From: Novosphingobium sp.
GTDB taxonomy: Bacteria; Pseudomonadota; Alphaproteobacteria; Sphingomonadales; Sphingomonadaceae
DNA: 64,000 nucleotides
NCBI GenBank assembly: GCA_031422595.1
Contig: JANPMA010000299.1
Span: forward strand, 3,003-67,002
Direction: 5' to 3'
Shown: piece by piece, positions 15,193 through 38,786 of the stretch
How positions within the stretch are numbered: the stretch's first letter is position 1
How the letters are laid out: the number at the start of each line of letters is the position of its first letter
Notes under the pieces: generated by a model
Told to the model about the DNA's origin: nothing
The model's database searches: none
What the model saw: the letters and a program-made list of their open reading frames with translations, nothing else
Position numbers and translations under genes: made by a program

Positions 15193-17637
15193 GTGCCAGA
15201 TCGGGTGCGCATCGCCATCGTCGGGTCAGGGCCGGCAGGGCTGAGTGCAGCAGCGCGCGCGGCTCAGCTTGGGCTGACCCACGTGCTCCTCGAGAAGACC
15301 AAGCACCTCTCCGACACGATCTTCAAATACCAGAAGGGCAAGCATGTCATGGCGACGCCCGCCGCGCTGGTGCTGCGCTCGGACCTGCCGTTCGATGCCG
15401 GCCGGCGCGAGATGATACTGGGCGGCTGGGAAGAGCAGTCTGCAGCGCACGGGGTCAACGTGCAATACGATGCCGAAGTGCAGAGCATCGCTGGCGAAGC
15501 AGGCAATTTTGCCATCACGCTCAAGAGCGGCGCGGAAGTGCTGGCCGAGACTGTGATCCTGGCCATCGGCACCCAGGGCAATCCCAATCTCGTCCGCTGC
15601 CCGGTAGGGGAAGACTCGGTGGTCCAGTACCAGCTCGACGATCCCGCCGAATACAACGACGAGCACATTTTCGTGATCGGCGGCGGCGATGCCGGGATTG
15701 AAAATGCACTGGGGCTTGCCGCCGACCCGGCGCAGGGCAACGTGGTCAGCCTGGTAAATCGCTCGGCCGACTTCGCCACCGCGAAAGACGCCAACGTCAA
15801 GGCGCTGATGGCCGCCCGCGATGCCGGACGGATCACGCTCTACGTCGAGACCACGACCGCGCGGATCGATCAGGGCGAAGTTGCACTCGATACCCGCGAC
15901 GGTGAGGTTATCGTGCGCTGCGACCGGGTGATCGCGCGGATGGGTTCGGCCCCGCCACGCGCTTTTGTCGAAGCTTGCGGGATTGCATTTACCGGACCCG
16001 ACCGGCTGGCGCTGCCAGCGCTTTCGCCCTCGTTCGAGACCTCGGTGCCCGGGATTCATGTGATCGGCGCGCTGGCCGGCTATCCGCTGATCAAGCATTG
16101 CATGAACCAGGGCTACGATGTGGTCGAGTTCATCAACGGCAACCGCGACCTGAAGCCCGCCGACGAGCCGATCCTTGCCGCGAAATTCGCTGCGCTTCCC
16201 GGTCAGCGCTCGGTCGATGAGTGGCTGAACCTGTTCGGCAGTCAGATCGAAGTGTTCCGCGAGGTCTCACCGCTCCAGCTGCGCGAGTTGATGCTCGATA
16301 GCACCGCGCGCTGTTTCGCTCCGGGCGAGGCGCTGTTCGTGCGCAATGATACCGGATCGTCGCTCTTCGCCTTGGCCGAGGGTTCAGTGCTGGTCGAGGT
16401 CGACAAAGACGATCCCGCCAAGGTCGTCCCGATCGCCCAAGGTGAAATCGTTGGCGAGGTCGGGCTGATCTCCGGGCGCCGGCGCGGGGCGACTGTGCGC
16501 GCCGACGGGCCAGTAGTCGCGGTCGAGCTGTCACGGACCGCAGCGCTCAAGCTGATCGCCACCGTGCCGGCGGCCGGGCGAGCCATTATGCGCGTGTCGA
16601 TCGAGCGCCAGCTTCTCCAGTTGTTCGGCTCGGGCCTTACGCGCGAGGATGTCGCAGAAGTGGTCGAACTGGCCGAAGTGCAAACCATCAAGGCTGGCGA
16701 GGTTGTCCTCACCGAAGGCGAAACCGGGACCGACATCTACGTCATCCGGCGCGGCTCGATGATCGTTGAAAAGAGCATCGGCGGCAAACAAGTGTTCCTC
16801 AATTACCTGCCCGCCGGGAGTTACGTCGGTGAAATGGCGCTGCTTGACGGTACCCCGCGGGTTGCAACGGTTAAGGCAGCGGTCCGGTCCGAGGTGATCC
16901 GCCTGCCCGGTGAGGCCTTTGCTCGGCTACTGACGCGCAAACCCGAATTGCGCCGCAAGGCGCTGGCCGACATGGCGACACGGCGCGACATCAATGCCTT
17001 TATCGAAGGCCGCAAGGACCAGTTTTCCGGCTCGGTCGATATGTACTCCGAAACCGCCCAGTTCCTGGTCGACAATGGTCTGGGCGAAGCGACCGATGTG
17101 CTGCTGATCGACGAAACCCTGTGCATCGGCTGCGACAATTGCGAAAAGGCCTGCGCCGACAGCCATGATGGACTGACCCGGCTCGACCGCGAAGCCGGGC
17201 GGACATACGCCCATCTCCACGTGCCGACCTCGTGCCGTCACTGTGAACACCCGCACTGCATGGCCGACTGTCCGCCCAACGCGATCAAGCGCGGCCCCGA
17301 TGGTGAGGTGGTGATCGATGACACCTGCATCGGTTGCGGCAATTGCCAGCGCAACTGCCCTTACGGTGTAATCCGGATGGACAGCGTCCCGCCGCCCAAG
17401 CCGCCGCTGCTCAGTTGGTTGCTGTTCGGGGCCGGTCCGGGGCCGGGCGAGCCGAGCTATGCGTGGCGCAAGAAGAACGCGCAGGGCACCGAGCAGCCCA
17501 AGAAGGCGATCAAGTGCGACATGTGCTCGGGGATTGAAGGTGGCCCGGCCTGCGTGCGCGCCTGCCCGACCGGCGCGGCGATCCGCGTCGCGCCCGAGGC
17601 CTTCCTTTCGGTCGCCCGGTTGGCGAAGGACGATTGA
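15193..17637 (+). CDS. Fusion oxidoreductase: TrxR-like NAD(P)H flavoprotein + 2 cyclic-nucleotide-binding domains + DmsB/NrfC-type four-cluster [4Fe-4S] module
   Basis: Dinucleotide motifs IVGSGPAG and VIGGGDAG are present, but I saw no CxxC redox disulfide in the flavoprotein part. The cNMP phosphate-binding cassettes are GEVGLISGRRRGATVRA and GEMALLDGTPRVATVKA. The Cys motifs are CIGCDNCEKAC, CRHCEHPHCMADCP, CIGCGNCQRNCP and CDMCSG..ACVRACP. Confidence 0.85.
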   Translation: MPDRVRIAIVGSGPAGLSAAARAAQLGLTHVLLEKTKHLSDTIFKYQKGKHVMATPAALVLRSDLPFDAGRREMILGGWEEQSAAHGVNVQYDAEVQSIAGEAGNFAITLKSGAEVLAETVILAIGTQGNPNLVRCPVGEDSVVQYQLDDPAEYNDEHIFVIGGGDAGIENALGLAADPAQGNVVSLVNRSADFATAKDANVKALMAARDAGRITLYVETTTARIDQGEVALDTRDGEVIVRCDRVIARMGSAPPRAFVEACGIAFTGPDRLALPALSPSFETSVPGIHVIGALAGYPLIKHCMNQGYDVVEFINGNRDLKPADEPILAAKFAALPGQRSVDEWLNLFGSQIEVFREVSPLQLRELMLDSTARCFAPGEALFVRNDTGSSLFALAEGSVLVEVDKDDPAKVVPIAQGEIVGEVGLISGRRRGATVRADGPVVAVELSRTAALKLIATVPAAGRAIMRVSIERQLLQLFGSGLTREDVAEVVELAEVQTIKAGEVVLTEGETGTDIYVIRRGSMIVEKSIGGKQVFLNYLPAGSYVGEMALLDGTPRVATVKAAVRSEVIRLPGEAFARLLTRKPELRRKALADMATRRDINAFIEGRKDQFSGSVDMYSETAQFLVDNGLGEATDVLLIDETLCIGCDNCEKACADSHDGLTRLDREAGRTYAHLHVPTSCRHCEHPHCMADCPPNAIKRGPDGEVVIDDTCIGCGNCQRNCPYGVIRMDSVPPPKPPLLSWLLFGAGPGPGEPSYAWRKKNAQGTEQPKKAIKCDMCSGIEGGPACVRACPTGAAIRVAPEAFLSVARLAKDD

Positions 17638-18513
17638 ATGGCCAGCGCCCCGCGCCCGTCCCGACAAACTGCGCGCCAGCTTACGGCCGATCACGAGGGC
17701 TTCCTGCGTCACCGCAATTTCCGTTGGCTCAAGCACGCGGGCGCACTGTGCGTTGTCGCCATCCTTGCCTACACGCTGATCGATGTGTCGCCCCGCCCGA
17801 ACGGCGGGACCTGGCTGGGGTACACGCTCGGCACCGTCGGGCTCGTGCTGATCGTCTGGCTCTCGCTGCTGGGCGTGCGCAAACGGACAATGACGCGCGG
17901 TGCCTGGTCGCTCAAGGCCTGGACCTCGGCCCACGTCTATCTTGGTCTCGCGCTGATCGTGATTGCCACGCTGCATACCGGCTTTGAATTCGGCTGGAAC
18001 GTCCACACCCTGGGCTATGCGCTGATGCTGTTGGTGATCGCATCGGGCCTGTTCGGGGTCGTGGTCTATTCCGTGCTGCCCGCGGCGCTCAGCAATAATC
18101 GCGAGCAGATGACCCAGCCGCAGATGGTCGAAGCACTCAGCGCGGTCGACCGCCAGCTACAAAGCGCCGCGCAGCCGCTCGATCCGCACTGGGCCGGGCA
18201 GGTCCTCGCCGCGCTTGGGGAGGGAGCTTTTGCCGGCGGCCTGTGGAGCCGGCTTGCCGGAGGCAAGCACGGCAGTGCGACCCAGCAGGCGATCGCCGCG
18301 TTCGACCTTGCCAGCACAGAAGAAGCCGCCGATCCGGCACTGGTCCGGGTCGAAGCGCTGCTCCAGCGCCGTGCCGCGCAGCTCGCCCGGATGCGGCGGC
18401 ACATGCGCCTCAAAGCGCTGCTTGAGGTTTGGCTCTACGTCCATGTCCCTGCAACCTTCGCTCTGATCGCCGCCTTAACCGCGCATGTGATCAGCGTGTT
18501 CTACTATTGGTAG
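17638..18513 (+). CDS. Polytopic inner-membrane protein, possible b-type cytochrome / electron-transfer subunit
   Basis: The ATG directly follows the upstream stop (TGAATG). There are about 5 TM helices. His residues inside helices (SAHVYLGL..ATLHTGFEFGWNVH; YVHVPATF..LTAHVISV) make haem-b ligation plausible but unproven. Confidence 0.55.
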   Translation: MASAPRPSRQTARQLTADHEGFLRHRNFRWLKHAGALCVVAILAYTLIDVSPRPNGGTWLGYTLGTVGLVLIVWLSLLGVRKRTMTRGAWSLKAWTSAHVYLGLALIVIATLHTGFEFGWNVHTLGYALMLLVIASGLFGVVVYSVLPAALSNNREQMTQPQMVEALSAVDRQLQSAAQPLDPHWAGQVLAALGEGAFAGGLWSRLAGGKHGSATQQAIAAFDLASTEEAADPALVRVEALLQRRAAQLARMRRHMRLKALLEVWLYVHVPATFALIAALTAHVISVFYYW

Positions 18514-18528
18514 GGGCGGGGCAGGGGC

Positions 18529-20226
18529 ATGATCTTTCGGCTCAGAACCGTCGAGACCACCGCCCAGGGCCGCGAAATCGTGCGCGACCGCGACGTTACA
18601 GCGGAGCGGATCACCCTTGGCCGTTCGGCGGACAACACGCTGCACCTGCCCGATCTCGCGCTCGATCCGTACCACGCGGCAATCACGGCGAGCGGCGGCA
18701 GGATCGCCATCGAGGCCCTCGGGTCGCCGGACTTCACTCTCGATGGCCGGCAGGTCAGCGAGGGTACGATCGATCCGCAAGCCGGCGGCGAGCTGCGCTT
18801 TGGCAGCTATCGCATTGCAGTTTCCGAGGCCGAGGATGCAGCGGTTCTGCTCACGATCGGTCAGATCGCCGAGGCATCAGGCACTTCGGAGGAAAAGTCC
18901 GGTTTCTCGCTTGCCGGACGAATGCCGGGCAAGCGGGCAATGTCGTGGCTGCTTGCGCTGGCGATCCTCGCCGCCTTTCTTGTCCTGCCGATCGTCAGCC
19001 AGATGGCCCGCGATCCCGCCGCCAAACAGGGCGTGCTGGGCGACGCGGCGTGGAGTTCGGGTCCGCTTAGCCAGGCGCACCATCAGCTCGAAGGCAAATG
19101 CGAGGCCTGTCACGTCAAGCCGTTTGAAGCGGTGCGCGATACCGCTTGCCTGACCTGCCACAAGGATGTCCACGAGCATGCTGCGCCCACCCGACTGGCC
19201 AATGCCCGCGGGCCTGACGGCTTGGGCGATCGGTTGCAGTGGCAGATCGCGCATTTGTTTGGCAAACCCGGCCCCGGGGCCTGTTCGGATTGTCATTCCG
19301 AACACCAAGGCGCCGGGCGCATGCCGCCGCCGCAGCAAGCCTTTTGCGCCGACTGCCACGGCTCGCTCAAGGATCGCCTGCCCGACACCGCACTTGGCAA
19401 CGCCGCCGATTTCGGCAAGGTGCATCCCGAATTCCGCCCCGCGCTGGCGCTGACTGCGGGCAGCGACAGGTTGACCCGGGTCTCGCTCGCCGAACATCCG
19501 CGCGAGGCGAACGGGCTGACCTTCACCCATGACCAGCACCTCGATCCGCGCGGCGGGGTGGCCCAGATGGCGCTGCGGCTTGGCATGGGGAGCGGCGGAC
19601 TGGGCTGCGCCGCCTGTCACCACCCAACCGCCGACGGGGTCCGCTTCCTGCCGATCGACATGGAGCGTGACTGCGAGGGATGCCACAGCCTGGCCTATGA
19701 CAAGGTCGGCGGTACCTTCCGGCGTCTGAAACACGGCGATACCGACCAGATGATCGCAGATCTCTCGGTCGCGCCGCGCGCGTCCAGTCCAATCGTGACC
19801 GGACGGCGGCGGCCCGGCGACTATGCCAATGGCGGAACCTATTTCGCCCGCTTCACGCCGCCGGGCGGGGGGATCGGATCGGTCGCGCAGGCCCTGTCGC
19901 GCGACGGAATCTGCGGCGAATGCCACACCCCGCGATTGGCCGGCGGGCGTTTCTCGGTGGTGCCGGTGACCCAGACCACGCGTTATTTCAATCACGGCTG
20001 GTTCAACCATGCGGCGCACAAGGAGGAAAAGTGCACCAGTTGCCACGCCGCGGATCGTTCCAACTTGGCGACCGACCTGCTGCTCCCCGATCTCAAATCG
20101 TGCCGCAGCTGTCATTTGGGCGAGGAAGCCCCGCGCGCCAAGGTTCCCTCGACCTGCGCAATGTGTCACGATTATCATCTCAAGCCGCTGGCTCCGCGCG
20201 GGGTCGAACCGCGACGAAAGCGATGA
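18529..20226 (+). CDS. FHA-domain / single-TM / decahaem c-type cytochrome
   Basis: N-terminal FHA-like region (ITLGRSADNTLHLPDLALDPYHAAI). One TM (WLLALAILAAFLVLPIV). Ten CxxCH motifs follow: CEACH, CLTCH, CSDCH, CADCH, CAACH, CEGCH, CGECH, CTSCH, CRSCH and CAMCH. Confidence 0.85.
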   Translation: MIFRLRTVETTAQGREIVRDRDVTAERITLGRSADNTLHLPDLALDPYHAAITASGGRIAIEALGSPDFTLDGRQVSEGTIDPQAGGELRFGSYRIAVSEAEDAAVLLTIGQIAEASGTSEEKSGFSLAGRMPGKRAMSWLLALAILAAFLVLPIVSQMARDPAAKQGVLGDAAWSSGPLSQAHHQLEGKCEACHVKPFEAVRDTACLTCHKDVHEHAAPTRLANARGPDGLGDRLQWQIAHLFGKPGPGACSDCHSEHQGAGRMPPPQQAFCADCHGSLKDRLPDTALGNAADFGKVHPEFRPALALTAGSDRLTRVSLAEHPREANGLTFTHDQHLDPRGGVAQMALRLGMGSGGLGCAACHHPTADGVRFLPIDMERDCEGCHSLAYDKVGGTFRRLKHGDTDQMIADLSVAPRASSPIVTGRRRPGDYANGGTYFARFTPPGGGIGSVAQALSRDGICGECHTPRLAGGRFSVVPVTQTTRYFNHGWFNHAAHKEEKCTSCHAADRSNLATDLLLPDLKSCRSCHLGEEAPRAKVPSTCAMCHDYHLKPLAPRGVEPRRKR

Positions 20227-20242
20227 CAGAGGGGCTGTGCCG

Positions 20243-21100
20243 ATGCTGATCGCCCAGATTACCGATTGCCATATCGGCTTTTTCCGCAGCGACGTCGGCG
20301 GAGCCAATACGCGGCGATTGCGCGCCGCGCTCGACCGGCTGCGCGATGGCCCCAATCGCCCCGATCTGCTCCTGCTCTCGGGCGATCTCACCGAATTCGG
20401 CGATGCGGCGAGTTACGCACGGCTGGCGGCAATGCTGGCCGACCTGCCCTTCCCGGTTCACCTGATGGTCGGCAACCACGATGACCGCGATGCCCTGCGC
20501 GCGACCTTTCCGGGGACGCCATTGGACCGGGGCTTCGTGCAATATGTTCTGCCCCTGCTCGGTTTGCGCCTGATCGCGCTGGATACGCTCGAGCCGGGGC
20601 GCCACGGCGGCGCCTTCTGTGCTGAGCGGGCCAAGTGGCTGAACGACCAGTTTGATGCTGACCCGGCGACTCCGGTGGTGATCGCAATGCATCATCCGCC
20701 GCTCGCCTCCGGGCTCGACTGGCTCGACGGAGCTGAGGACGCGCCATGGATCGCCCGCTTCACCGAGGCAATCGCCGGACGCCCGCAAGTGCGCGCGATC
20801 CTTGCCGGACACCTGCACCGCACAATCCACGCCAGCGTTGCGGGCGTACCGCTGACGGTCTGCCCCTCAACCGCGCCGACTGTCGCGCTCAACCTGAACC
20901 CGATCGACCCCGAGCGGCCCGATGGCCGGGCGATGATCGTCGATGAACCCGCGGCATTTGGCTTGCACCGCTGGAACGGCGAACGGCTGATATCGCATTT
21001 CGAGAGCCTGTCCGCCGGGCATCCCTGGGCCGTGCTCGCCAGCTACGATGCGGGGATGCAGGAACTGGTGCGCCAGAACGTCCGCGAGCAGCGCGACTGA
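20243..21100 (+). CDS. Class III cyclic-nucleotide phosphodiesterase (CpdA/Icc-type metallophosphoesterase)
   Basis: Ordered motifs ITDCH, LSGDL, VGNHDD, AMHHPP and AGHLH correspond to D-x-H / GD / GNHD / H / GHxH. The gene comes last in the plus-strand operon. GTG at 20237 is an alternative start. Confidence 0.8.
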   Translation: MLIAQITDCHIGFFRSDVGGANTRRLRAALDRLRDGPNRPDLLLLSGDLTEFGDAASYARLAAMLADLPFPVHLMVGNHDDRDALRATFPGTPLDRGFVQYVLPLLGLRLIALDTLEPGRHGGAFCAERAKWLNDQFDADPATPVVIAMHHPPLASGLDWLDGAEDAPWIARFTEAIAGRPQVRAILAGHLHRTIHASVAGVPLTVCPSTAPTVALNLNPIDPERPDGRAMIVDEPAAFGLHRWNGERLISHFESLSAGHPWAVLASYDAGMQELVRQNVREQRD

Positions 21101-21110
21101 TCTGCGATCC

Positions 21111-29028: not shown

Positions 29029-30380
29029 CGCAGCGCACCGATCGCATTGACAGCTTGCCGCAGCGCTGCCCGAAAAGCACCCGGATCATATTCTGCAGGA
29101 CTCGCTACGGCGGCGTAGGCACGGTTGATGCTGGCGCGAATCCCGGCTGCGGCGCCGACCGTGACCCGGCCCTCGCGGACCAGCAGGTTGAGCAGCGTAT
29201 CAACTGCCATCACCGACTGGGCCGACCCGGCGTAGTCGGTGAAGCGAACCGAGATTGCCCGCCCCCCGATCGCTGCGATGACCTGGAAAGCAGTATCGCT
29301 ACCGCCCGGCCCGCGCGCAACCGCGTCTCCGAGCGCACTTGCCGCTGCAACCAGCCGGCCCGCTGCAGCCACCGCCTCCGGGCGCCCTTTTTCCATCGCG
29401 GCGTGGAAATTGCGGGCGGCTGCATCGAACTGCGCGGCTTCGCGCGGCGCCAGAACCTGGGCCACGGCCGAGAGCATGATGATGTTCTCATCGTTGAAAG
29501 GCGGTTGACCGAATGGGATCGGCCGAGCCGGATTTGTCTCAAACGTCCGCGCCCGCTGCGGATTGTCGTCGATCCCGCGATGGCAGCTGTGGCAATCGTA
29601 AAAGGTGAATTCCGGGAATATCCCGTTGCTGGCCAGGTCTGACTGCCGAAACAAGCTGAGCGAGCGCTGTACTGCCTCGGCCTGTCCCACCGCCCACAGC
29701 CGGACGCTGTCGTTCGAGGGCTTACGCGCGGTGTAGTCGGCGTCCACGTCCCAATGCTGTTGCAGCGAGGAGAACAGGTCGAGTTCGAACGAAAGCCGGG
29801 GATGTCCCGCTGCCATCATCGCATGCGTTACGAACTGGCCAGGCTTGCCGCTGCCCAAATGGCAATCGAGACAAACCGCAGCGCGCACCTTGGGGTTGTC
29901 GAGCGCGCTCATGCCGCCAGCCACGTTGCCAGCATGGCTCGCCCCAACCGCATAGTGACTGGCAATCCAGCCCGATGCCGGGCCGTGGCAGCCTTCGCAG
30001 CCCACCCCGTCGGAAATCAGGAAGCGGTCGCCGCGCGCGCCTGCCGGGGTGGCATGGCAACCGAGGCAAGCCGCCGCCGAGCCGGCCCGGCCAAGCCCCA
30101 GAGTGCTTGCGATCCGTTCACCGCGCAGCGATACAAGCGCCGCGTAGGTACGGCTGTGTGCGCCGCCCCGCGACGCGGGTTCCTGCCACAACCTGAGTTC
30201 ATCCTGGCGGACAACCTTGCCATCACCATCAGCACGGCCGTGGCAGGTCGAACCGGCGCAGTTGGCGACGCCTTCATAGCGGCCGGAAGCGAGGGCTGCT
30301 CCAGTTGCCGCGCCGGCAAGCGCAGCCATGCCAAGCAGCGCAGCCAGCCTGCGACGAACGGCAGTTCCGAAAGTCGGCAT
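29025..30380 (-). CDS. Secreted multihaem c-type cytochrome (c554 / multihaem family-like)
   Basis: I chose the ATG at 30380 because GGAGGG lies 4 nt upstream. Signal peptide is LAALLGMAALAGAATGAALA. Motifs are CLGCH, CEGCH, CLDCH and CHSCH plus a CAGSTCH (Cx4CH) site. The stop overlaps the next start (ATGA). Confidence 0.8.
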   Translation of the reverse strand: MPTFGTAVRRRLAALLGMAALAGAATGAALASGRYEGVANCAGSTCHGRADGDGKVVRQDELRLWQEPASRGGAHSRTYAALVSLRGERIASTLGLGRAGSAAACLGCHATPAGARGDRFLISDGVGCEGCHGPASGWIASHYAVGASHAGNVAGGMSALDNPKVRAAVCLDCHLGSGKPGQFVTHAMMAAGHPRLSFELDLFSSLQQHWDVDADYTARKPSNDSVRLWAVGQAEAVQRSLSLFRQSDLASNGIFPEFTFYDCHSCHRGIDDNPQRARTFETNPARPIPFGQPPFNDENIIMLSAVAQVLAPREAAQFDAAARNFHAAMEKGRPEAVAAAGRLVAAASALGDAVARGPGGSDTAFQVIAAIGGRAISVRFTDYAGSAQSVMAVDTLLNLLVREGRVTVGAAAGIRASINRAYAAVASPAEYDPGAFRAALRQAVNAIGALR

Positions 30381-30491
30381 GTTGCCCTCCAACCGGTCGC
30401 CAGTCTGGCATGCCGGGCCGGTCGGAGCAAGCATGTCGTCGCGGCTTTGCCCCGTTGCCACCCTGCCCGGTGCAGCCCATAGTCACTTGCG

Positions 30492-32348
30492 ATGGGCACA
30501 GGTTTGCGAATGATGATACGCCGCCTGCCGGGCGGGCGCTGGCTAGCGCTGGCAGCCGTATTTGCACTGCTGGCATTCGCCGATTACGGCAGGATCGATG
30601 CGACCCGGATCATCGACCAGCGCGGTGGAGATCTGCTGCTGGCACTTAACGCGCAGCGCAGGCCGCAGTCCGACCAGGTCGTGATCGTCGATATCGATCA
30701 GAAATCGCTCGAAGACATGAATGACGATGCCGGTTCCTGGCCCTGGCCGCGCTCGGTTCATGGCGAATTGATCGAGCACATTGCAGCGCAAAAACCGCAG
30801 GCCATCGTGTTCGATATATTGTTCAACGAACCTGACGTGTTCCGGCCCGAACACGATGCCGCGTTCGCCGCTGCGGTGGCGCAGCATCCCAACGTCTGGC
30901 TGGCGATGACGCTCAATTCAAACGGTACTGGCGCGGTGGTTAGCGATCTGCCGCCGGCGGTCGGGGCTCGGCCGATTGGAAATCCGAGACCCGGTACCCG
31001 GTTACCGATCATGCTGCCGCTGGTGGTTGCGCAATATCCCGAAGCGATGCGCGGCGGGCTGATCAATTTTACCCCTGACAGCGATGGAACCGCGCGGCAC
31101 CATCAGCTCCAAACCGATCGCGACGGCTGGCGCTTTCCCTCGCTGGCTGCACGCGTGACCGCTGATGCTGGACGCTCGCTGCCCGATACCAGCCAGGTCA
31201 TGCTCAACTGGCGCAGCGGGTGGCGGCACTTGTCCTACTCAAACGTCTACCTCGACAGTCTGCGGCGCCAATCGCAGCGACCAATGGACGAGTTCAAAGG
31301 CAAGATCGTGGTGATCGGCACCGCCGCACCAGGCCTGACCGATTTTCGCGTGGCCCCGCTCGGAAGCACTTACCCGGGGGTCGAGATCCTCGCCACTGCG
31401 CTTGACAACCTAGCCCGAGGCGACTGGCTGCGCGAGGTACGGCGGCCAGGCATGCTGCCCCTGGCCCTTGGGTTGATCGGCTTGTTGGCGCTGGGCTTTA
31501 CCCGCAACGTCAGCCCGCAACGCCTGTTGTTGGCGATGATCGCGATAACACTTGCTGCCATCGCAACGACCTGGCTGATCCTTGTTAGTGGCACGTTCGT
31601 GCCAGTATTTGGCGCTTTGGCATTTGGCTGGGTCTATTACCTGGTCGCAAGCGGTCTTGCCTACCTCGACGAGCGCGCCCGACGGCTCCGGACCGCCAGC
31701 CTGTTTACCCGCTTCCTCGATGCGCGCGTGGTTGCCGAGTTGATCGACAAGGGTGAGATCGACTTCCGGCAGCAGGCCCAGTCCCGCGAGATTTCGGTGC
31801 TGTTCTCGGACATCCGAGGGTTCACCGCATTGTCCGAAGTGTCCGCGCCGGAAGCCGTAGTTGCGATGCTCAATGACTATTTCTCACGGCAGGTGGGGGT
31901 GATCTTCGCGCATGGCGGGACGCTCGACAAATTCATCGGCGATGCGATCATGGCGTTCTGGGGCGCGCCTGCTGCGCAAGAAGATCACGCCGCCCGGGCA
32001 ATTGCCGCCGCGCTGGAAATGTCGGAGACGCTGGAAGGGCTGCGCGCACAGCTTGGCGGCATCGGTGCCGATCTCGAAATCGGCATCGGAATCCACTCGG
32101 GCGGCGCAGTTGTCGGGCTGATCGGATCGAAGGACCGGCTCGACTACACCGCAATCGGCGACACGGTAAACCTCGCCAGCCGGGTCGAGAGTACGACCAA
32201 GGGAATCGCCCGGGTACTGATTACCGAAGCGACCCGCGCTGCGGCCGGCGATATGTTCGAATACCGCGACTGCGGCGTACACCGGGTCAAGGGCCGCGCG
32301 GAAGGCGTTCGCCTATTTGAACCCTTCCGCAAAGCTGTTACGCTCTGA
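30492..32348 (+). CDS. CHASE2-sensor class III adenylate/guanylate cyclase (cyclase 1)
   Basis: An N-terminal TM is followed by a periplasmic CHASE2-like region (VVIVDIDQKSL...WPWPRS), about 3 further TMs and the catalytic domain (VLFSDIRGFT, DKFIGDAIMAFWGAP, DYTAIGDTVNLASRVES). The start could instead be the ATG at 30510. Confidence 0.85.
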   Translation: MGTGLRMMIRRLPGGRWLALAAVFALLAFADYGRIDATRIIDQRGGDLLLALNAQRRPQSDQVVIVDIDQKSLEDMNDDAGSWPWPRSVHGELIEHIAAQKPQAIVFDILFNEPDVFRPEHDAAFAAAVAQHPNVWLAMTLNSNGTGAVVSDLPPAVGARPIGNPRPGTRLPIMLPLVVAQYPEAMRGGLINFTPDSDGTARHHQLQTDRDGWRFPSLAARVTADAGRSLPDTSQVMLNWRSGWRHLSYSNVYLDSLRRQSQRPMDEFKGKIVVIGTAAPGLTDFRVAPLGSTYPGVEILATALDNLARGDWLREVRRPGMLPLALGLIGLLALGFTRNVSPQRLLLAMIAITLAAIATTWLILVSGTFVPVFGALAFGWVYYLVASGLAYLDERARRLRTASLFTRFLDARVVAELIDKGEIDFRQQAQSREISVLFSDIRGFTALSEVSAPEAVVAMLNDYFSRQVGVIFAHGGTLDKFIGDAIMAFWGAPAAQEDHAARAIAAALEMSETLEGLRAQLGGIGADLEIGIGIHSGGAVVGLIGSKDRLDYTAIGDTVNLASRVESTTKGIARVLITEATRAAAGDMFEYRDCGVHRVKGRAEGVRLFEPFRKAVTL

Positions 32349-32362
32349 CCACAGATCGGAGT

Positions 32363-32860
32363 GTGGAGGTTATGCGAAGCACACGCGTCATCCTCATCGC
32401 CGCGATTGCCCTGCTGTCCTGGACTGCGGCCCGGGCCAACGAACGCGGCGTGGTGATCCGTGCAGGCGATCTGTTTGCCGAACCCTTCGTCGATGCAGCC
32501 AAGATCGGTCCGCTCGCCAGCAATCAACCGGTGACGATTATCGAGCGCAAAGGGGGCTGGCTGGCGGTCGAAGTCGCTGGTCGGCGCGGTTGGGTGCGGA
32601 TGCTCAATGTCCGACTGGAAGCGCCGGCAAGACCGGCAGCCAACACAGCTGCGCTGCGCACCGGTAGCACAGGGCGCACGGTAGCGACCGGGGTAAAGGG
32701 TCTTGACGAAATCGACATTCGCAATGCCTCGGTCGATCGTGACCAGCTGGCGCAGCTTGGCCAGCTGGCTGTAAGCAGCGACGACGCGCGCCGTCGCGCC
32801 GTTCTGGACAACCTCAAGGAAGCCAAGGTCGACTATCTGAAACCGGGGAAGGTCAAGTGA
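32363..32860 (+). CDS. Periplasmic bacterial SH3-domain protein
   Basis: A signal peptide is followed by an SH3_3-like segment (VIRAGDLFAEP...VTIIERKGGWLAVEVAGRRGWVRMLNV). The stop overlaps the next start. Confidence 0.6.
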   Translation: MEVMRSTRVILIAAIALLSWTAARANERGVVIRAGDLFAEPFVDAAKIGPLASNQPVTIIERKGGWLAVEVAGRRGWVRMLNVRLEAPARPAANTAALRTGSTGRTVATGVKGLDEIDIRNASVDRDQLAQLGQLAVSSDDARRRAVLDNLKEAKVDYLKPGKVK

Positions 32861-33771
32861 TGCGCGCGCCCCACCCACTTTGGACCTTGGCGGTCATCTG
32901 CGCCTTGGTATCGACTTCGGCTTCGGCCCAGTTCGGTCCGCTGGGCAGCATTCTGGGCAAAGCTCGGTCGGCTCAGAAAATCGGCGAAGGACTGCGTAAC
33001 ATCAACGAACAGGAAGAGATCAAGATCGGCGGCGATCTGGCCGGAATGCTGCTTGGGGCCGCGCCGTTGCTCAAAGATCCGGCCAAGCAGCACTATCTCA
33101 ACACGCTCGGCGGATGGCTGGCGCAGCACAGCGAGCGGCCCGGATTGCCATGGAAGTTCGGCATCGTCGACAGCAATGATTTCAATGCATTTTCAACCCC
33201 GGGTGGCCACATCCTGATCACCCGCGGACTGTTCGATCGCATGCGCAACGAGAGCGAGCTGGCCGGAGTTCTGGCGCATGAGATCGCGCATGTCGTGCGC
33301 AAGCACCACCTCCAGGCGCTCCAGAAAGGTTTGCGCGAACAGTCGCTGAACGAAATGCGAAATTATTTCTCCGTTTCGACTGGAAGCGGGCTTGGCGACC
33401 GGTTCGCGAGCGCCATGCTTAGCGCCGGCAAGGATATGTATATCCGCGGCCTCGACCGGGACGATGAATACGAAGCCGACCGGATGGGCGTGGTGATCGC
33501 AGCCCGGTCGGGCTTTTCGCCTTACGGGCTGGTCGGCGTGCTCCAGACCCTGACCGCGACCACCGACGAGAAGGGCTATGGACTGCACAACCGGACCCAT
33601 CCGCTGCCGCTCGACCGGCTGGCGCATCTGGATGCGGCAATGGGTACGCGGTTTGACAGCATGCAAGGTCTGGTCGACGATGTGCCGAGCTTCGTAACCC
33701 TGCGCAATCCGCCGCCGATCGCGGCCCCGCCGGCACGAACGGCCAAGCCGAAGCGGCCCAAGCGTCCATGA
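32857..33771 (+). CDS. M48-family zinc metallopeptidase (periplasmic)
   Basis: Signal peptide, then FNAFSTPGGHILITRGL followed by HEIAHVVRKHH (HExxH). Both start and stop overlap the neighbouring genes. Confidence 0.8.
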   Translation: MMRAPHPLWTLAVICALVSTSASAQFGPLGSILGKARSAQKIGEGLRNINEQEEIKIGGDLAGMLLGAAPLLKDPAKQHYLNTLGGWLAQHSERPGLPWKFGIVDSNDFNAFSTPGGHILITRGLFDRMRNESELAGVLAHEIAHVVRKHHLQALQKGLREQSLNEMRNYFSVSTGSGLGDRFASAMLSAGKDMYIRGLDRDDEYEADRMGVVIAARSGFSPYGLVGVLQTLTATTDEKGYGLHNRTHPLPLDRLAHLDAAMGTRFDSMQGLVDDVPSFVTLRNPPPIAAPPARTAKPKRPKRP

Positions 33772-36008
33772 TAAAATGGGGCAGGAAACGCCTAGATAGC
33801 CGAGCGCCGGTGCTTGCCGGGGTTGTGCTGGTCGTTCTGGTGGCGGCGCTGCACTTTCTTGGCCTGACCACGCTCGATCGGATCGGGTTGCTGCTGTTCG
33901 ATAGCTATCAACGGGCCGCGCCGCGCGCCTATGAGGATGCCCCAGTAGCCGTTGTCGATATTGACGACGAAAGCATTCGCCGGCTCGGCCAATGGCCCTG
34001 GCCGCGCTCGGACATCGCCAAGCTGACCGATCGGTTGGGGCAAGCCGGGGCTTCGGTGGTGGCTTTCGACGTCGTGTTCTCAGAGCCTGACCGTACCTCT
34101 CCAGCGCGCATCGCCGATCAGGTGGCGCGCGGCGGTGCCGACAGCGCAACGCTCGCTGCGCTGCGCCGCTTGCCCGATCATGACGCCGAACTGGCCCGCA
34201 GCATCGCTGCCACTCCGGTCGTGCTGGGCTATTTTCTGGTCAACGACCGGGCCGGGCCGCAAGTCACCGCCAAGGCGGGATTTGCGATCGGCGGATCGCC
34301 TCCCGGCGAAGTGGTGCCAACGTTCCGCAGCGGAATCCAGTCGCTGCCGGTGCTGAGCGCGGACGCTGCGGGCAGCGGGTCGGTCAGCCTTGCCGCAGAC
34401 AGCGACGGTATCCTCAGGACTGTGCCGTTGCTCGCGCGACAGGGCGACCAGCTGTTGCCCTCGCTAGCGCTCGAAGCGCTGCGGGTAGCGCAGGGAGCGG
34501 GGTCGATCATGGTCAGGACCAGCGATGGCAGCGGCGAGATCGGCGGCACGCCCGGCCGGATCGTGGCGATCAAGGTCGGCCAGTTCGAAATTCCCACGTC
34601 TGATGCGGGCGGGCTGTGGCTGCATTATACCCCGCCGGTGCCGTCCCGGACCATCCCGGCGTGGCAGGTCCTCGACGGTACGCTTCCACCTGCGGAGCTT
34701 GAGACAGCGGTTGCAGGGAAGATCGTCTTTGTCGGAGCCGGGGCGATCGGTCTGCGCGATCTGATCTCGACCCCGCTGCGCGATCACGAGCTTGGCGTCA
34801 TGGCGCATGCCCAGGCCGCCGAGCAGGTAATCCTCGGGCAATTCCTGCAACGGCCCGACTGGGCGCTCGGCCTCGAACGGGTATTGATTCTGGTACTGGG
34901 ACTGGGGCTGGCGCTAATTTTGCCCCGGCTTGGCGCGGCTCGCGGGGCGCTGGTGGTCTTCGGGGCGGTCGGGCTGGTCGGTGCCGGAAGCTGGCTGGCC
35001 TTTACCCAGCGGGGCTTTCTCCTCGATCCGACTTATCCGGTGCTTGGCCTGGTGCTGGTCTACAGCGCCCAGACCGTGCTGGTGTTCTACCGCGAAGAGC
35101 GCCGCCGCGCCTATATCCACAGTGCGTTCGATCGTTTTCTCTCGCCCGAAATGGTCCGGCGGATCGCCGCCGATCCCGACAGGCTCGAATTGGGCGGCGA
35201 AGAGCGCGAGATGACGGTCTTGTTCTGTGATGTGCGCAACTTCTCGGGAATCTCCGAGCATTTAGCCCCCAAGCAGGTGATCGGCTTCCTGATCGCGCTG
35301 CTGACCCCGCTGTGCGACGTCCTGCTGGCGCGCAAGGCAACGATCGACAAGTTCATCGGCGATGCGATCGTGGCGTTCTGGAACGCCCCGCTCGACGACC
35401 CCGACCAGCACCGCAACGCCGCCCGCGCGGCCTTGGAAATGGTGCGCAAACTCGGTGCGCTCAATGCCGGGGAAGGACGCGATCCCGACGCGGCCTGGCC
35501 CGGGCCGGTGCGGATCGGGATCGGGCTCAATTGCGGACTATGCTGCGTGGGCAACATGGGCTCGGCGCAGCGCCTGTCCTATTCGCTGATCGGCGACACG
35601 GTCAATCTCAGCTCGCGGATCGAAGGCCTGACAAAATTTTACGGGGTATCGATCGCGATCGGCAAAGCGCTGCACGATAACCTGGCGGGATTTGCGACCC
35701 TTGAAATGGACCTGGTCCGCGTGGTCGGTCGCGACGCTCCCGAGCGGGTCTTCGTTTTGCTTGGCGAGGAAGAATTGGCTGATTCGCCCGAGTTCGCCGA
35801 TTTGCGCGAGCGGCACAATACAATGCTGGCGGCCTATCGGGCTTCCCAATGGGATGATGCGCGCGCCCAACTGTCCTTTCTCACTGACCACGCCGGGCAA
35901 TTCGGGCTCAGCCAGCTCTACTCGCTGTACGAAACAAGAATCGCGGCGCTGATCGCCGAACCTCCGCCGGCCGGTTGGGATGGAATCTACGAAGCGCGCG
36001 AAAAGTAG
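33768..36008 (+). CDS. CHASE2-sensor class III adenylate/guanylate cyclase (cyclase 2)
   Basis: TM plus CHASE2-like region (VAVVDIDDESIRRLGQWPWPRS), then TM helices and the catalytic domain (VLFCDVRNFS, DKFIGDAIVAFWNAP, SYSLIGDTVNLSSRIEG). It is a paralog of cyclase 1. Confidence 0.85.
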   Translation: MIKWGRKRLDSRAPVLAGVVLVVLVAALHFLGLTTLDRIGLLLFDSYQRAAPRAYEDAPVAVVDIDDESIRRLGQWPWPRSDIAKLTDRLGQAGASVVAFDVVFSEPDRTSPARIADQVARGGADSATLAALRRLPDHDAELARSIAATPVVLGYFLVNDRAGPQVTAKAGFAIGGSPPGEVVPTFRSGIQSLPVLSADAAGSGSVSLAADSDGILRTVPLLARQGDQLLPSLALEALRVAQGAGSIMVRTSDGSGEIGGTPGRIVAIKVGQFEIPTSDAGGLWLHYTPPVPSRTIPAWQVLDGTLPPAELETAVAGKIVFVGAGAIGLRDLISTPLRDHELGVMAHAQAAEQVILGQFLQRPDWALGLERVLILVLGLGLALILPRLGAARGALVVFGAVGLVGAGSWLAFTQRGFLLDPTYPVLGLVLVYSAQTVLVFYREERRRAYIHSAFDRFLSPEMVRRIAADPDRLELGGEEREMTVLFCDVRNFSGISEHLAPKQVIGFLIALLTPLCDVLLARKATIDKFIGDAIVAFWNAPLDDPDQHRNAARAALEMVRKLGALNAGEGRDPDAAWPGPVRIGIGLNCGLCCVGNMGSAQRLSYSLIGDTVNLSSRIEGLTKFYGVSIAIGKALHDNLAGFATLEMDLVRVVGRDAPERVFVLLGEEELADSPEFADLRERHNTMLAAYRASQWDDARAQLSFLTDHAGQFGLSQLYSLYETRIAALIAEPPPAGWDGIYEAREK

Positions 36009-36017
36009 GCCGCAGCC

Positions 36018-36920
36018 CTATGGCTTGACCGGCACTCCGGGCTGATCATTGGGTCCGGGCGCGCTGCCGCCGGTGTTTCTCTTGCCCTTGCCGTTGATTA
36101 CTCCGGGCAATACCCTCAGCGCCCCGCCCAACAACGCCTTACCCAGACCACCGCCGCCTTGATCAGGGAAAACCTGATCATGAAGACCCGATAGGCCACC
36201 CGGCGAAATGCGAAACGGACCTATCGGCGCGGCCCCTGCCCGGGGCACATAGACGGCCTGCATCGGTTCGGTCAGTTCAACAGTGACCCCGCCCGAAGTG
36301 ACCGAGGCAGACCCAATTTCAGCCCCGGGCTCAGTTCCCGGACCCGGTCCGCGCAAGACCACCAGAGTCGCGGTTTTCTTATCAGCATCTGCCTCGCGGA
36401 CTGCTCTATTTTCGTTTTTCGCAATATCGCGAGCGCCCTCCCCGACCACTCCTTCAAGGATCGTTCCGCGGATTCCGATTGTTGCAATTGGCGAGGATAT
36501 CGTTGCGCTATTGCCGCGATTGGGCTGCCCGGACATGAAGCGGAATGAACCGCGCAGCACAGACGCGCCCGAAGTCCGCCCGCGCGACGGATCATAGACG
36601 AAGCGGTCAATCCGCAGCACGGAGTTGGGGCCGATCGTGAAAGTCGATCGATCGAGTAGCAACACTTGCAGTCGGCCGTTCTTGCCGGTTTGAATCAGGT
36701 CAGCCAAGGCGATTCGTTGGCGGACTGAAATGGCTTTGGGCTTGGGCGATTGGGCGTTGCTCAGCTTGACTTGACCAACCACCGCAGCAGCAATGCCGAT
36801 TTGCGCCGCACTGCTTTGAGCATTGGCGATGCCCCAGCTCAACATTGTCGACGCAGCGCCAAGAGCAAGCAAGCCCCGCTTCAAATATCGGGTGCTGGTC
36901 TTTTTTTCCGGCATTTTCAT
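36018..36920 (-). CDS. Secreted FecR-domain protein
   Basis: ATG at 36920 is preceded by GAGGAA. It has a signal peptide (LLALGAASTMLSWGIANA) and a FecR-like beta-rich segment (IQTGKNGRLQVLLLDRSTFTIGPNSVLRIDRF). It converges on cyclase 2. Confidence 0.6.
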   Translation of the reverse strand: MKMPEKKTSTRYLKRGLLALGAASTMLSWGIANAQSSAAQIGIAAAVVGQVKLSNAQSPKPKAISVRQRIALADLIQTGKNGRLQVLLLDRSTFTIGPNSVLRIDRFVYDPSRGRTSGASVLRGSFRFMSGQPNRGNSATISSPIATIGIRGTILEGVVGEGARDIAKNENRAVREADADKKTATLVVLRGPGPGTEPGAEIGSASVTSGGVTVELTEPMQAVYVPRAGAAPIGPFRISPGGLSGLHDQVFPDQGGGGLGKALLGGALRVLPGVINGKGKRNTGGSAPGPNDQPGVPVKP

Positions 36921-37318
36921 TTTGTGGTTCCTCGCGGCGACGCTGCGGGTGCCGCACACACAGCTCGCGCGGCAGCCCATTCCGGCTTTTTGAAATCCTT
37001 GGACTTCAACCTGCCGAATTCGGCAGCCGCACCTTCCTGATCGTCGATCCGGCACAGGATGCTGGCATGGAGCAATTGGGCCGGTTTGTTAGCGGGATCG
37101 GTGAGCAGAACGCGTTCGAGAGTTGCCAGTGCATCGAGCAACGCACCCGATCCCGCTTGCGATCGGGCGAGCGCCAGTCCGTCTGCGGGCTTGGCGCTGG
37201 CCAACACCAATTGATCAAGCGCTTCCAAGGACTGTGCGACGGCGGGTTGCAGCAGGACCGTCGATACCGCCATGAATCCGAATACCGCTGAAACCACCCT
37301 GAATGCATTGCTTGTCAT
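36917..37318 (-). CDS. Small secreted helical (TPR-like) protein
   Basis: 133 aa with a signal peptide (FGFMAVSTVLLQPAVA) and an Ala/Leu-rich helical sequence. The stop overlaps the FecR-domain gene start (ATGA). Confidence 0.5.
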   Translation of the reverse strand: MTSNAFRVVSAVFGFMAVSTVLLQPAVAQSLEALDQLVLASAKPADGLALARSQAGSGALLDALATLERVLLTDPANKPAQLLHASILCRIDDQEGAAAEFGRLKSKDFKKPEWAAARAVCAAPAASPRGTTK

Positions 37319-38760: not shown

Positions 38761-38786
38761 AGGGCTGGAGCGGGTGAAGGGAATCG
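38761..38786. repeat. tRNA-proximal copy of the direct repeat (candidate att site, includes the tRNA 3' end)
   Basis: agggctggag cgg gtgaagggaa tcg. Positions 38766 onward form the 3' acceptor and T-arm of tRNA-Gly. The repeat partner is at 11384-11406. Confidence 0.55.

Follow-up and report, generated by a model that had tools for sequence, protein, structure and literature searches.

A conserved seven-protein gene cluster of Novosphingobium and distant bacteria as a candidate cyclic-nucleotide-regulated route from NAD(P)H to an outer-membrane barrel

This study concerned a 64,000-nucleotide stretch of DNA from Novosphingobium sp. (GenBank assembly GCA_031422595.1, contig JANPMA010000299.1, positions 3,003 to 67,002; hereafter the window), and the question of whether the closely packed genes at 15193-37318, which specify multihaem cytochromes, an iron-sulfur (FeS) flavoprotein, an outer-membrane barrel and cyclic-nucleotide enzymes, belong together, and what they might do. 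The window has a G+C content of about 65%, and the best matches of its proteins were to Novosphingobium and other Sphingomonadales. An initial annotation, made from the sequence alone, had taken the region as one supercluster encoding a cyclic-nucleotide (cNMP)-gated electron conduit across the cell envelope. As judged from gene content and conservation, the core is a set of seven proteins, an 814-aa fusion protein, a 291-aa membrane protein, an FHA-decahaem cytochrome, a pentahaem cytochrome, a DUF336 lipoprotein, a barrel and a 1348-aa decahaem-propeller protein, and we consider it somewhat probable that they form a pathway under cyclic-nucleotide control, by which the reducing power of NAD(P)H is exported to the barrel.

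Gene calls and domain assignments were taken from an open reading frame (ORF) listing, Pfam and NCBIfam scans, and motif counts over the window proteins. All of the genes named in the initial annotation were found where it had placed them and with the domains it had given, including about 25 haem c sites, 16 FeS cysteines, two cNMP-binding (CNB) domains, two CHASE2 cyclases and a class III phosphodiesterase; the haem c motifs of the 22-kb region add up to exactly 25 (10+10+5). Two small revisions were needed. The gene extents hold except for the start of the FecR gene, which most likely lies at 36920, in an ATGA overlap with the stop codon of the TPR gene, and a conserved CcmH/CycH-like TPR gene (14131-15051, minus strand) lies just outside the range that had been given. 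Three modules can be discerned, with junctions between genes that are overlaps of 1-4 bp or gaps of no more than 16 bp. Module A (15193-21100, plus strand) carries the genes for the 814-aa fusion, the 291-aa protein, the 565-aa FHA-decahaem and a metallophosphoesterase. Module B (30380-21111, minus strand) carries those for the pentahaem, the DUF336 lipoprotein, the 629-aa barrel and the 1348-aa decahaem-propeller, and module C (30492-36008, plus strand) those for two CHASE2 cyclases with, between them, an SH3 protein and then an M48 peptidase; FecR and TPR genes come next, in convergent orientation. A promoter and terminator scan of the convergent junction at 21100-21111 found nothing, and no Crp-type palindrome was seen by eye in the two upstream regions.

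Whether these genes form a unit was explored by their conservation in other genomes. For the 1348-aa protein, clustering at 90% leaves more than 7,600 relatives, and at 50% identity (E ≤ 1e-30) there are 575 clusters, all unnamed or labelled 'LVIVD repeat-containing'. A profile scan with the same protein over one genome per GTDB species placed relatives in at least 568 genomes, each of a different species, and gave 80 loci with flanks of 10 kb. These came from Sphingomonadales, Rhodospirillales, Hyphococcus, Limnobacter, Rhodoferax, Fontimonas, Stagnimonas, Methylobacter, Haliea, Steroidobacteraceae, Arenimonas, Acidobacteriota and one Bacteroidia metagenome-assembled genome. All window proteins were compared with these loci by tblastn, and the 43 loci whose flanks reached 9 kb or more to either side served as the full-flank set. 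The barrel was present in all 43, the lipoprotein and the pentahaem in 41 each, the 565-aa decahaem and the 291-aa protein in 32 each, and the 814-aa fusion in 30, while the phosphodiesterase was found in 17 (Sphingomonadales only), the cyclases in 3-5, FecR in 3, and SH3 and M48 in none. Both the cytoplasmic and inner-membrane half and the periplasmic and outer-membrane half were present in all 14 of the non-Sphingomonadales loci, usually as one co-directional operon in the order 814-291-565-lipoprotein-barrel-1348-(pentahaem), or a rotation of it. A reciprocal scan of metagenome contigs, based on an alignment of the 814-aa fusion, gave 26 full-flank loci, of which all 26 carried the decahaem, 24 the 291-aa protein and 18 the 1348-aa protein. 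Several long antisense ORFs in high-GC loci, which clustered as apparent families, were discarded.

By sequence comparison, the core genes are thus found together in Alpha-, Beta- and Gammaproteobacteria, Acidobacteriota, KSB1 and Calditrichota, in many cases within a single operon, and the predicted chain is conserved in at least five bacterial phyla. Such a gene set is not a product of chance, because no variation was seen, in alignments of 38-114 homologues, at any of the 25 haem motifs, the 16 cysteines of the FeS domain or five histidines in the 291-aa protein. The closest relatives (82-83% identity; L164 and L165) have the whole supercluster, including the cyclase-SH3-M48-cyclase block, and N. 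malaysiense (74% identity) is without that block. The claim that the whole 22 kb is one unit therefore stands for the seven-gene core, which is co-conserved across phyla, but not for the phosphodiesterase, SH3, M48, FecR, TPR and cyclase genes, which are peripheral.

If the core is a pathway, its electron input is likely to be the 814-aa protein (15193-17637, plus strand), which combines Pyr_redox_3/2, two cNMP_binding and four-cluster Fer4 domains, and whose best PDB matches were HycB, PKA-R and YpdA. The flavin domain is TrxR/FNR/YpdA-like, of the type that binds FAD and NAD(P)H, with GSGPAG and GGGDAG motifs. No redox-active CxxC was found in residues 1-330, and the TIGR01292 score (56.7 bits, cutoff 343) is likewise low, so that a thioredoxin reductase proper was rejected; with 116.7 bits against the YpdA model (cutoff 339.9), the domain appears to be FNR/YpdA-like in fold only. 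The C-terminal part is HycB/NrfC-like, with 16 cysteines in four [4Fe-4S] motifs, all of them invariant in 40 homologues. Between the two halves, cNMP_binding (PF00027) matched over two stretches (113.9 bits, above cutoff), with phosphate-binding cassettes (PBCs) GEVGLISGRRRGAT and GEMALLDGTPRVAT, and both domains show GE...R.AT, which their homologues retain. By family criteria, namely the domain together with the Gly-Glu and Arg of the PBC, this is a protein with cNMP-binding domains.

Neighbouring genes bear on the likely donor. A glutamate dehydrogenase (GDH) gene (12062-13591, plus strand, in the window) lies beside the cluster in 19 of 81 loci, including Rhodospirillaceae, Gammaproteobacteria, Thiotrichales and Hyphococcus, and in Acidobacteriia a glucose-6-phosphate dehydrogenase (G6PD) gene is found inside the cluster instead (L082, 6063-7601; L167, 6010-7545). 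Since both enzymes make NAD(P)H, this hints at a dedicated supply of reductant and fits NAD(P)H as the donor. The TPR gene at 14131-15051 specifies a protein of CcmH/CycH (CcmI-like) type with an N-terminal anchor (PF23914, TPR_CcmH_CycH, 62.8 bits, cutoff 42). A gene of this kind adjoins the 814-aa gene in 27 of 81 loci, the betaproteobacterial clusters are flanked by CcmI and CcmC genes, and its product is probably a dedicated apocytochrome c chaperone.

Variants in distant phyla show which parts of the input module can be exchanged. The Acidobacteriia loci L082 and L167 encode the lipoprotein, FecR, a CHASE2 cyclase, G6PD, the LVIVD cytochrome and a barrel homologue (39% identity to the window barrel) with an added CarboxypepD_reg domain, together with a 10-haem transmembrane cytochrome without FHA, a 291-aa homologue and a c554-like pentahaem. 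The TrxR-like domain is missing, and the genes at L082 16073-19902 and L167 16303-20174 specify a NuoE-NuoF-like NADH-dehydrogenase protein and a Fer2_4-CNB-Fer4 protein, which, from the domain content, is a non-homologous swap of the electron-input module that kept the CNB and four-cluster FeS part. The KSB1 and Calditrichota loci keep all of the conduit parts and have a CNB-Fer4 protein without a flavin domain and a separate 2xFHA protein.

How would electrons leave the cytoplasm? The 291-aa protein (17638-18513, plus strand) has five hydrophobic helices and gave no Pfam hit above cutoff. In 38 homologues, H99 and H113 (third transmembrane helix, TM3), H269 and H283 (TM5) and H123 are invariant, and both pairs are spaced i, i+14. 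Two such histidine pairs on two parallel helices are the classic signature of a di-haem cytochrome b, and sub-threshold Ni_hydr_CYTB or DUF4405 matches were found in all six family members scanned (best 23.4 bits, cutoff 30.1). We predict a di-haem cytochrome b, by way of which electrons would cross the inner membrane. The next gene specifies the 565-aa decahaem (18529-20226, plus strand), with a cytoplasmic FHA-like domain, a transmembrane helix at 134-162 and a periplasmic c3/c7-type decahaem domain. Its ten CXXCH motifs are invariant, with exactly ten in all 45 homologues, and about ten further histidines are conserved, as is the GR of the FHA domain; it is predicted to act as a wire.

These proteins could also be read as quinone-coupled. 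The 291-aa protein would then exchange electrons with the quinone pool, the 814-aa protein would be a cNMP-regulated NAD(P)H:quinone oxidoreductase, and the decahaem a quinol oxidase resembling CymA or CbcL. In favour of such a scheme, the 291-aa family weakly resembles Ni_hydr_CYTB, a family in which FdnI, HydC and CybB have quinone sites, and a similar b-plus-multihaem logic is found in CbcL of Geobacter. However, the genes for the FeS, b-type and decahaem proteins are strictly adjacent (the 291-aa gene adjoins the 814-aa gene in 39 of 47 loci anchored on the latter), and the NAD(P)H module has been replaced while the CNB-FeS part was kept, both of which argue for a dedicated wire and leave quinone coupling improbable in our view. 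The dedicated order envisaged in the initial annotation, NAD(P)H to flavin, to four [4Fe-4S] clusters, to the membrane protein and on to periplasmic haems, is supported by the cross-phylum gene co-conservation, the invariant histidine pairs and the swap of the NADH module.

In the periplasm, the chain would continue through two further cytochromes. The c554-like pentahaem (29025-30380, minus strand; Cytochrome_C554, E = 2e-8) has a C-terminal helical domain, and its CX4CH and four CXXCH motifs are invariant in 52 sequences. Membership of the MtrA/DmsE decahaem family (TIGR03508/03509) was rejected, as the pentahaem scored 16.3 bits (cutoff 192) and the 565-aa decahaem had no match. The 1348-aa protein (21111-25157, minus strand) is Sec-exported. 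Its N-terminal part, a decahaem domain of some 920 aa, has ten CXXCH motifs, and its C-terminal part is an LVIVD beta-propeller; the ten motifs and at least 11 further histidines are invariant in an alignment of 114 diverse sequences. An AlphaFold2 (AF2) model of the decahaem domain built from these sequences (pLDDT 68, pTM 0.76) gave no Foldseek match in the PDB at E ≤ 0.001, so that an MtrC-, NrfA- or HAO-like fold is neither shown nor excluded. No lipobox, no PF22113 match and no secretion signal beyond Sec were found in the protein, and with no PDB cytochrome as a structural match either, the MtrC/OmcA family was rejected, although some homologues have faint PF22113 matches. Following the propeller (21111-21300, minus strand) is a C-terminal motif that is nearly invariant in all phyla, GLDRDRAVDE(S/T)GxQxAVFGRxGSRPF, possibly a Ca2+ site, or a partner or secretion signal. 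PDB sequence searches with the cytochromes, the barrel and the lipoprotein gave marginal matches only. Counted together, there are enough extra invariant histidines for all 25 c haems to be six-coordinate, which points to electron transfer rather than open-haem catalysis, and the 1348-aa protein is probably the terminal electron carrier or reductase.

A different function for this half of the cluster, as a periplasmic enzyme system, has to be considered here. The 1348-aa protein would be a reductase or oxidase that binds a small substrate by its propeller, the barrel an import channel and the lipoprotein a ligand-binding accessory. The combination of propeller and cytochrome is a common design of periplasmic enzymes, such as cd1 NirS and hydrazine synthase, and the 1348-aa protein is very highly conserved. 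Haem density was dropped as a mark of an enzyme, as it equals that of OmcA/UndA (ten haems in about 830 aa). The DUF336 lipoprotein (660 aa, 27046-29028, minus strand) has a LAAC lipobox and two HbpS-like domains (PF03928, E = 7e-27 over four stretches), four conserved cysteines and no conserved histidine among its homologues, and its best PDB match was EfgA (2e-7), one of the DUF336 relatives that bind small molecules. The best structural matches of the barrel are also solute or polymer channels. On the other side, the invariant histidines suffice for ten six-coordinate haems, so that none is obviously open for catalysis, the propeller has neither His nor Cys conserved as metal ligands, 25 haems are many for feeding one enzyme, and in some lineages the barrel is fused to a cytochrome. 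Taken together, we regard an enzyme of this kind as rather unlikely.

The barrel itself (629 aa, 25157-27046, minus strand) ends in a C-terminal Phe and had no Pfam match even at E ≤ 1, including to MtrB_PioB and Alginate_exp (PF13372). Its AF2 model from 46 sequences (pLDDT 60, pTM 0.62) has about 18 strands, and Foldseek matched it first to AlgE (E = 2.5e-12, TM 0.58) and then to OccD/OccK/OprD-type (Occ/Opd) porins; one homologue bears an alginate-export name in its UniRef entry. MtrB was not among the top 50 PDB structural matches, and on these grounds the MtrB/PioB porin family, with 26-28 strands, was rejected. The most conserved parts of the barrel are not its strands but a Pro-rich N-terminal extension (residues 40-140) of about 100 aa, periplasmic and disordered in the model, and a loop of about 50 residues (470-522) with the sequence ENPxFAGADTSYWIRQxIPFAGGGR...LRSSKxxGQSNF. 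AlphaFold confidence is low for both, which may be partner-docking or plug elements. CXXCH motifs are lacking in the window barrel and in all 63 barrel homologues of the first locus set, and for the window protein a Cyc2-type fusion, with an N-terminal monohaem CXXCH and a 16-strand porin, was accordingly rejected. However, in two acidobacterial loci (L166, Blastocatellia, 7694-9985; L168, 5695-8016) a barrel homologue is naturally fused to an N-terminal c3-type tetrahaem domain with four CXXCH motifs, at 38% and 35% identity to the window barrel over nearly its whole length. These fusions show that the barrel family does work together with cytochromes, and make a Cyc2-like geometry conceivable.

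Would electrons then reach the cell surface? In one scheme the cluster is a full trans-outer-membrane conduit, as put forward in the initial annotation, in which the 1348-aa protein, on the surface, reduces Fe(III) or Mn(IV) minerals, humics or electrodes, and haems thread the barrel as in MtrCAB. The count of cofactors (25 c haems and two b haems), all of them apparently six-coordinate as in CymA-MtrA-MtrC chains, is in keeping with this, and so are the LVIVD repeats and choice-of-anchor-B similarity, typical of surface proteins, the barrel-cytochrome fusions, and the MtrC-domain matches in some 1348-aa homologues and small neighbouring cytochromes. Yet the barrel has 18 strands compared to the 26 of MtrB, which is outside its closest 50 structural matches; the 1348-aa protein has neither a lipobox nor an identified secretion signal beyond Sec and is more conserved between phyla than is typical of surface cytochromes; the hosts are mostly aerobes; and this path would conserve no energy. 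A full conduit is possible but doubtful. The more specific idea of an MtrAB-type barrel with an inserted cytochrome is weakened: the initial annotation had itself named an ordinary porin, too narrow to hold a cytochrome, as evidence against it, and the 18-strand, AlgE/OprD-like model is of that kind.

A second line of evidence concerns regulation, and begins with the two cyclases. The first (30492-32348, plus strand) has FSDIRGFT at 438, KFIGDA at 480 and GDTVNLASR at 556, the second (33768-36008, plus strand) FCDVRNFS at 486, KFIGDA at 528 and GDTVNLSSR at 609, and Guanylate_cyc (PF00211) matched at E = 2.9e-28 and 2.9e-15. Both carry the full catalytic set of adenylate cyclases, FxD, KFIGDA and GDTVNxxSR, which we take to hold the two metal Asp, the substrate-binding Lys and Asp, and the transition-state Asn and Arg; by these motifs, both are class III adenylate cyclases with CHASE2 sensors. 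The first is syntenic in L164 and L165, and homologues of the second adjoin the cluster in L004, L008, L014, L053, L105, L113, L117, L082 and L167. The exported SH3_3 protein (32363-32860, plus strand) and M48 peptidase (32857-33771, plus strand), both assigned by Pfam, are clade-specific and not part of the core, being absent from all 161 scanned loci, with SH3 found in L164 and L165 and M48 in L164. The exported FecR-domain protein (36018-36920, minus strand; PF04773) is likely to be a partner of CHASE2 cyclases, and the two are paired inside the acidobacterial clusters L082 and L167. The small exported TPR protein (36917-37318, minus strand; TPR_19, 24.6 bits, just under cutoff) is peripheral, with homologues only in L008 and L113 among the scanned loci. 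In module A, the metallophosphoesterase (20243-21100, plus strand; Metallophos, E = 1.6e-18) has the D-x-H, GD, GNHD, H and GHxH motifs and was found in 25 of 81 loci, all of them Sphingomonadales.

One could argue that the cyclases, SH3, M48, FecR, TPR and phosphodiesterase genes are simply unrelated neighbours. SH3 and M48 are missing from the scanned loci, the cyclases adjoin the cluster in about a tenth of loci, and the signalling block is flanked by an integrase fragment and a tRNA gene. Against this, the electron-input subunit invariably contains the CNB domains, cyclases of differing architectures recur beside or inside the cluster in Sphingomonadales, Limnobacter, Acidobacteriia and Blastocatellia, and the phosphodiesterase gene lies inside the operon in the 25 loci that carry it, so that we give this explanation little credence. 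The cNMP link made in the initial annotation is strengthened by the conservation of the CNB domains and their PBCs everywhere, together with the recurrence of cyclases in unrelated lineages. Of the initial interpretation, which is borne out in part, cNMP gating and export over the inner membrane have good backing. Phosphorylation may be a further input. The Blastocatellia locus L166 also encodes a Ser/Thr kinase, a PP2C and an FHA-GAF-cyclase (16492-22874), and PP2C, 2xFHA and kinase genes lie by the cluster in L081, L083, L169 and 8 and 5 other loci (positions L083 5344-6222 and 17936-20458; L081 8476-15052; L169 11408-12382). In distant phyla the Ser/Thr kinases are often fused to an FGE-sulfatase domain, and in Sphingomonadales, instead, it is the decahaem protein that has an FHA-like domain.

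Taken together, the following mechanism is proposed. The 814-aa protein would oxidise NAD(P)H on its TrxR/FNR-like flavin domain and load the four [4Fe-4S] clusters, a flow suggested by its architecture, and the CNB pair between the flavin and FeS halves would gate that transfer, most likely on cAMP. Sensor cyclases, of the CHASE2 or another kind, would supply this nucleotide, and additional tuning may be provided in many lineages by Ser/Thr kinase, PP2C and FHA proteins. From the clusters, electrons would pass outward over the inner membrane by two b haems of the 291-aa protein, between TM3 and TM5, to the membrane-anchored decahaem, and this, the soluble pentahaem and the 1348-aa protein would relay them through the periplasm to the barrel and the DUF336 lipoprotein. 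There a probably soluble oxidant would be reduced at or through the barrel, either in a Cyc2-like manner, with a cytochrome at the periplasmic mouth of the pore, or by a surface-exposed 1348-aa protein. As this route bypasses the quinone pool and proton pumps, it resembles regulated export of the NADPH-oxidase or ferric-reductase type rather than energy-conserving respiration, and the dissipation of energy by outward flow would explain the heavy regulation. Tentatively, the cluster may be a bacterial counterpart of NADPH oxidase or ferric reductase, extended by 25 wire-like haems and a barrel in the outer membrane, by which aerobic heterotrophs of at least five phyla spend NAD(P)H on a cAMP (and phospho-threonine) signal to deliver electrons outside.

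Several observations weigh against this pathway. More than 10 kb separates the two halves in 13 of 29 Sphingomonadales loci and in 8 of the 26 loci anchored on the 814-aa fusion, and cyclases are adjacent in only 8 of 81 and 5 of 80 loci (about 10%). Between phyla the 1348-aa protein keeps 45-57% identity, a degree of conservation unusual in a surface cytochrome, and the window barrel has no haem motif and a model, of moderate confidence, that is too narrow for an MtrA-like insert. In the FHA domain, the S-x-x-H and N-G residues for phospho-threonine binding are not conserved among homologues of the 565-aa protein. Haem b binding by the 291-aa protein is a prediction, and the outward direction of electron flow is one that we infer. 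The phosphodiesterase, finally, is closer to SpdA (157 bits, cutoff 400) than to CpdA (70.5 bits, cutoff 225), and SpdA hydrolyses 2',3'- but not 3',5'-cNMP (PMC4222275). It has all of the class III motifs, but its score, nearer to that of a 2',3'-cNMP enzyme, makes the role of eraser that it had been given uncertain.

Electrons might also flow the other way, with Fe(II), Mn(II) or reduced humics oxidised in the periplasm or outside the cell and the electrons passed to the cytoplasmic FeS clusters and NAD(P)+. Cytochromes of the c554 type do take electrons from oxidative enzymes, and the pentahaem is of that type. The geometry of the barrel fusions also resembles that of Cyc2 (PMC8406198). However, the transfer to NAD(P)+ would be uphill with no evident energy-coupling subunit, the adjacent G6PD and GDH genes point to a supply of NAD(P)H, and the hosts are heterotrophs, so that inward flow seems very improbable.

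Some features of the flanks deserve mention. A gene for a PycTM-family membrane protein (188 aa, 13563-14129, plus strand; Pfam 90.5 bits, PADLOC 58.8 bits), with no adjacent cyclase, is syntenic with the GDH and TPR genes in Novosphingobium whether cyclases are near or not (L001-L003, L014, L024, L164, L165). The presence of a stand-alone protein resembling a cNMP effector beside a cNMP-regulated cluster is curious. A Pycsar system was rejected, as 16 kb lie between the PycTM-like gene and the cyclases, the gene keeps its synteny in L001 where they are missing, and the cyclases match PycC by their shared catalytic fold only. Directly to the right of the cyclase/FecR/TPR block are a truncated phage-type integrase gene (171 aa, 37593-38108, minus strand) and tRNA-Gly(CCC) (38766-38839, minus strand), and the G+C content falls to 0.60 at 36-38 kb. 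These features could be what is left of an integrated element that either carried the signalling block in or adjoins it. In the left part of the window, two MFS transporter genes precede a run of aromatic amino-acid/homogentisate-type catabolic genes (2139-7255, plus strand; a glyoxalase/dioxygenase-fold protein, FAA hydrolase, FAD_binding_3 monooxygenase and class I/II aminotransferase) that are unrelated to the redox cluster, and a 1029-aa ORF (8273-11362, plus strand) has an N-terminal NAD_binding_8 Rossmann domain and a weak acetoacetate-decarboxylase-like region.

None of the conduit proteins (the putative di-haem b protein, three multihaem cytochromes, barrel and lipoprotein) carries a functional name. 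Relatives of the 1348-aa protein occur in thousands of metagenome clusters as well, and the hosts include soil, freshwater and marine bacteria of the Sphingomonadales, Burkholderiales, Nevskiales, Steroidobacterales, Methylobacter, Acidobacteriota, KSB1 and Calditrichota. If the proposed pathway is correct, it would be a new route, neither Mtr nor Pcc, by which common aerobes move electrons out of the cytoplasm, with NAD(P)H and not quinol as the direct source. It would provide the first cNMP-binding domain built into an electron-transfer protein, and, among electron-transfer chains, the first in which a second messenger exerts direct gating by binding to the input subunit. Two unexplained activities of aerobic bacteria, the production of superoxide outside the cell and the reduction of Fe, Mn and humics, could be candidates for its work. 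The genes would then be testable candidates for extracellular reductive chemistry, such as the mobilisation of metals, the production of reactive oxygen and the reduction of humics, in organisms that do not count as electroactive, and the hosts Novosphingobium, Sphingobium and Sphingomonas are culturable and genetically tractable.

What, finally, is the relationship of the cluster to known systems? Literature searches on LVIVD, multihaem, porin, FHA, CNB, DUF336 and Sphingomonadales themes found no paper describing it, and no such family is named by MHCscan. An LVIVD protein of Tenderiales is unrelated, the peat EET1-4 clusters have an MtrB-like porin and an NHL propeller, and a literature match from Idiomarina concerned DUF3365. 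As had been suspected from the domain composition, Pfam, NCBIfam and Foldseek comparisons of the cluster proteins revealed no homology to Mtr, Pio or Pcc. The general kind, a multihaem envelope conduit, is a known one, but no precedent was found for direct NAD(P)H input through a CNB-containing FeS flavoprotein, nor for an AlgE-like barrel partnered with a propeller-decahaem.

With MtrCAB, PioAB and MtoAB the cluster shares a multihaem relay that spans the periplasm between the inner membrane and a barrel in the outer one, with about 25-28 haems that are apparently all six-coordinate. It differs in its AlgE-like barrel of about 18 strands, where the MtrB/PioB family has 26, and, from MtrCAB, in its large cytochrome, which is not a lipoprotein and is without a solved relative, and in its input, NAD(P)H by way of FeS clusters and a predicted cytochrome b instead of quinol by way of CymA. 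Geobacter Pcc (OmaB/OmbB/OmcB) and Ext have a similarly modular set of porin, periplasmic cytochrome, lipoprotein and outer cytochrome, and there is a short local match to ExtM, but this scored 64 bits against a cutoff of 800, the other components had no match, and those systems have no cytoplasmic NAD(P)H/CNB input. AlgE and OccD-OccK, the best structural matches to the barrel model, also have 18 strands and a long internal loop, whereas the barrel described here has no Alginate_exp match at E ≤ 1, a conserved periplasmic extension of 100 aa, and always a cytochrome context, with no polysaccharide genes nearby.

Cyc2 is alike in combining a small barrel (16 strands compared to about 18) with a c-type cytochrome at its periplasmic N-terminus (PMC8406198), as in the fusions of L166 and L168. 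In contrast, the window barrel is without a haem motif, the domain fused in those two loci is a tetrahaem c3 while Cyc2 is monohaem, and Cyc2 is thought to take electrons in from Fe2+, where outward flow from NAD(P)H is proposed here; no homology to Cyc2 was found among the cluster proteins in the library and structure comparisons. The signalling genes recall the CyaD1/CyaD2/CyaK-Clr-SpdA module of Sinorhizobium meliloti (PMC4222275), in which CHASE2 cyclases likewise stand beside a class III-type phosphodiesterase and a CNB reader, but the reader here is a redox protein and not a Crp-type transcription factor, and the phosphodiesterase, as noted above, scored below the SpdA cutoff.

For the inner-membrane part, the nearest parallels lie elsewhere. 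FdnGHI and Hmc/Tmc couple a four-cluster, ferredoxin-like FeS subunit to a di-haem b membrane subunit, and link cytoplasmic FeS to periplasmic multihaem c. Compared to FdnHI, however, the topology here is inverted, with the FeS domain cytoplasmic and fused to flavoprotein and CNB domains, and compared to Hmc/Tmc an HdrD-like CCG subunit is lacking. The NOX/FRE ferric reductases and bacterial MsrQ-Fre pass electrons from NAD(P)H to a flavin, to two transmembrane b haems and on to an outer acceptor. Although no Ferric_reduct homology was seen in Pfam scans of the cluster proteins and 291-aa family members, the proposed route is alike in its NAD(P)H donor, its flavin, its two b haems on two helices and its acceptor on the outer side, and would likewise be electrogenic, conserve no energy and be tightly regulated. 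It differs in that FeS clusters and 25 c haems lengthen the chain, and in that regulation would be exerted by CNB domains embedded in the electron-input subunit itself.

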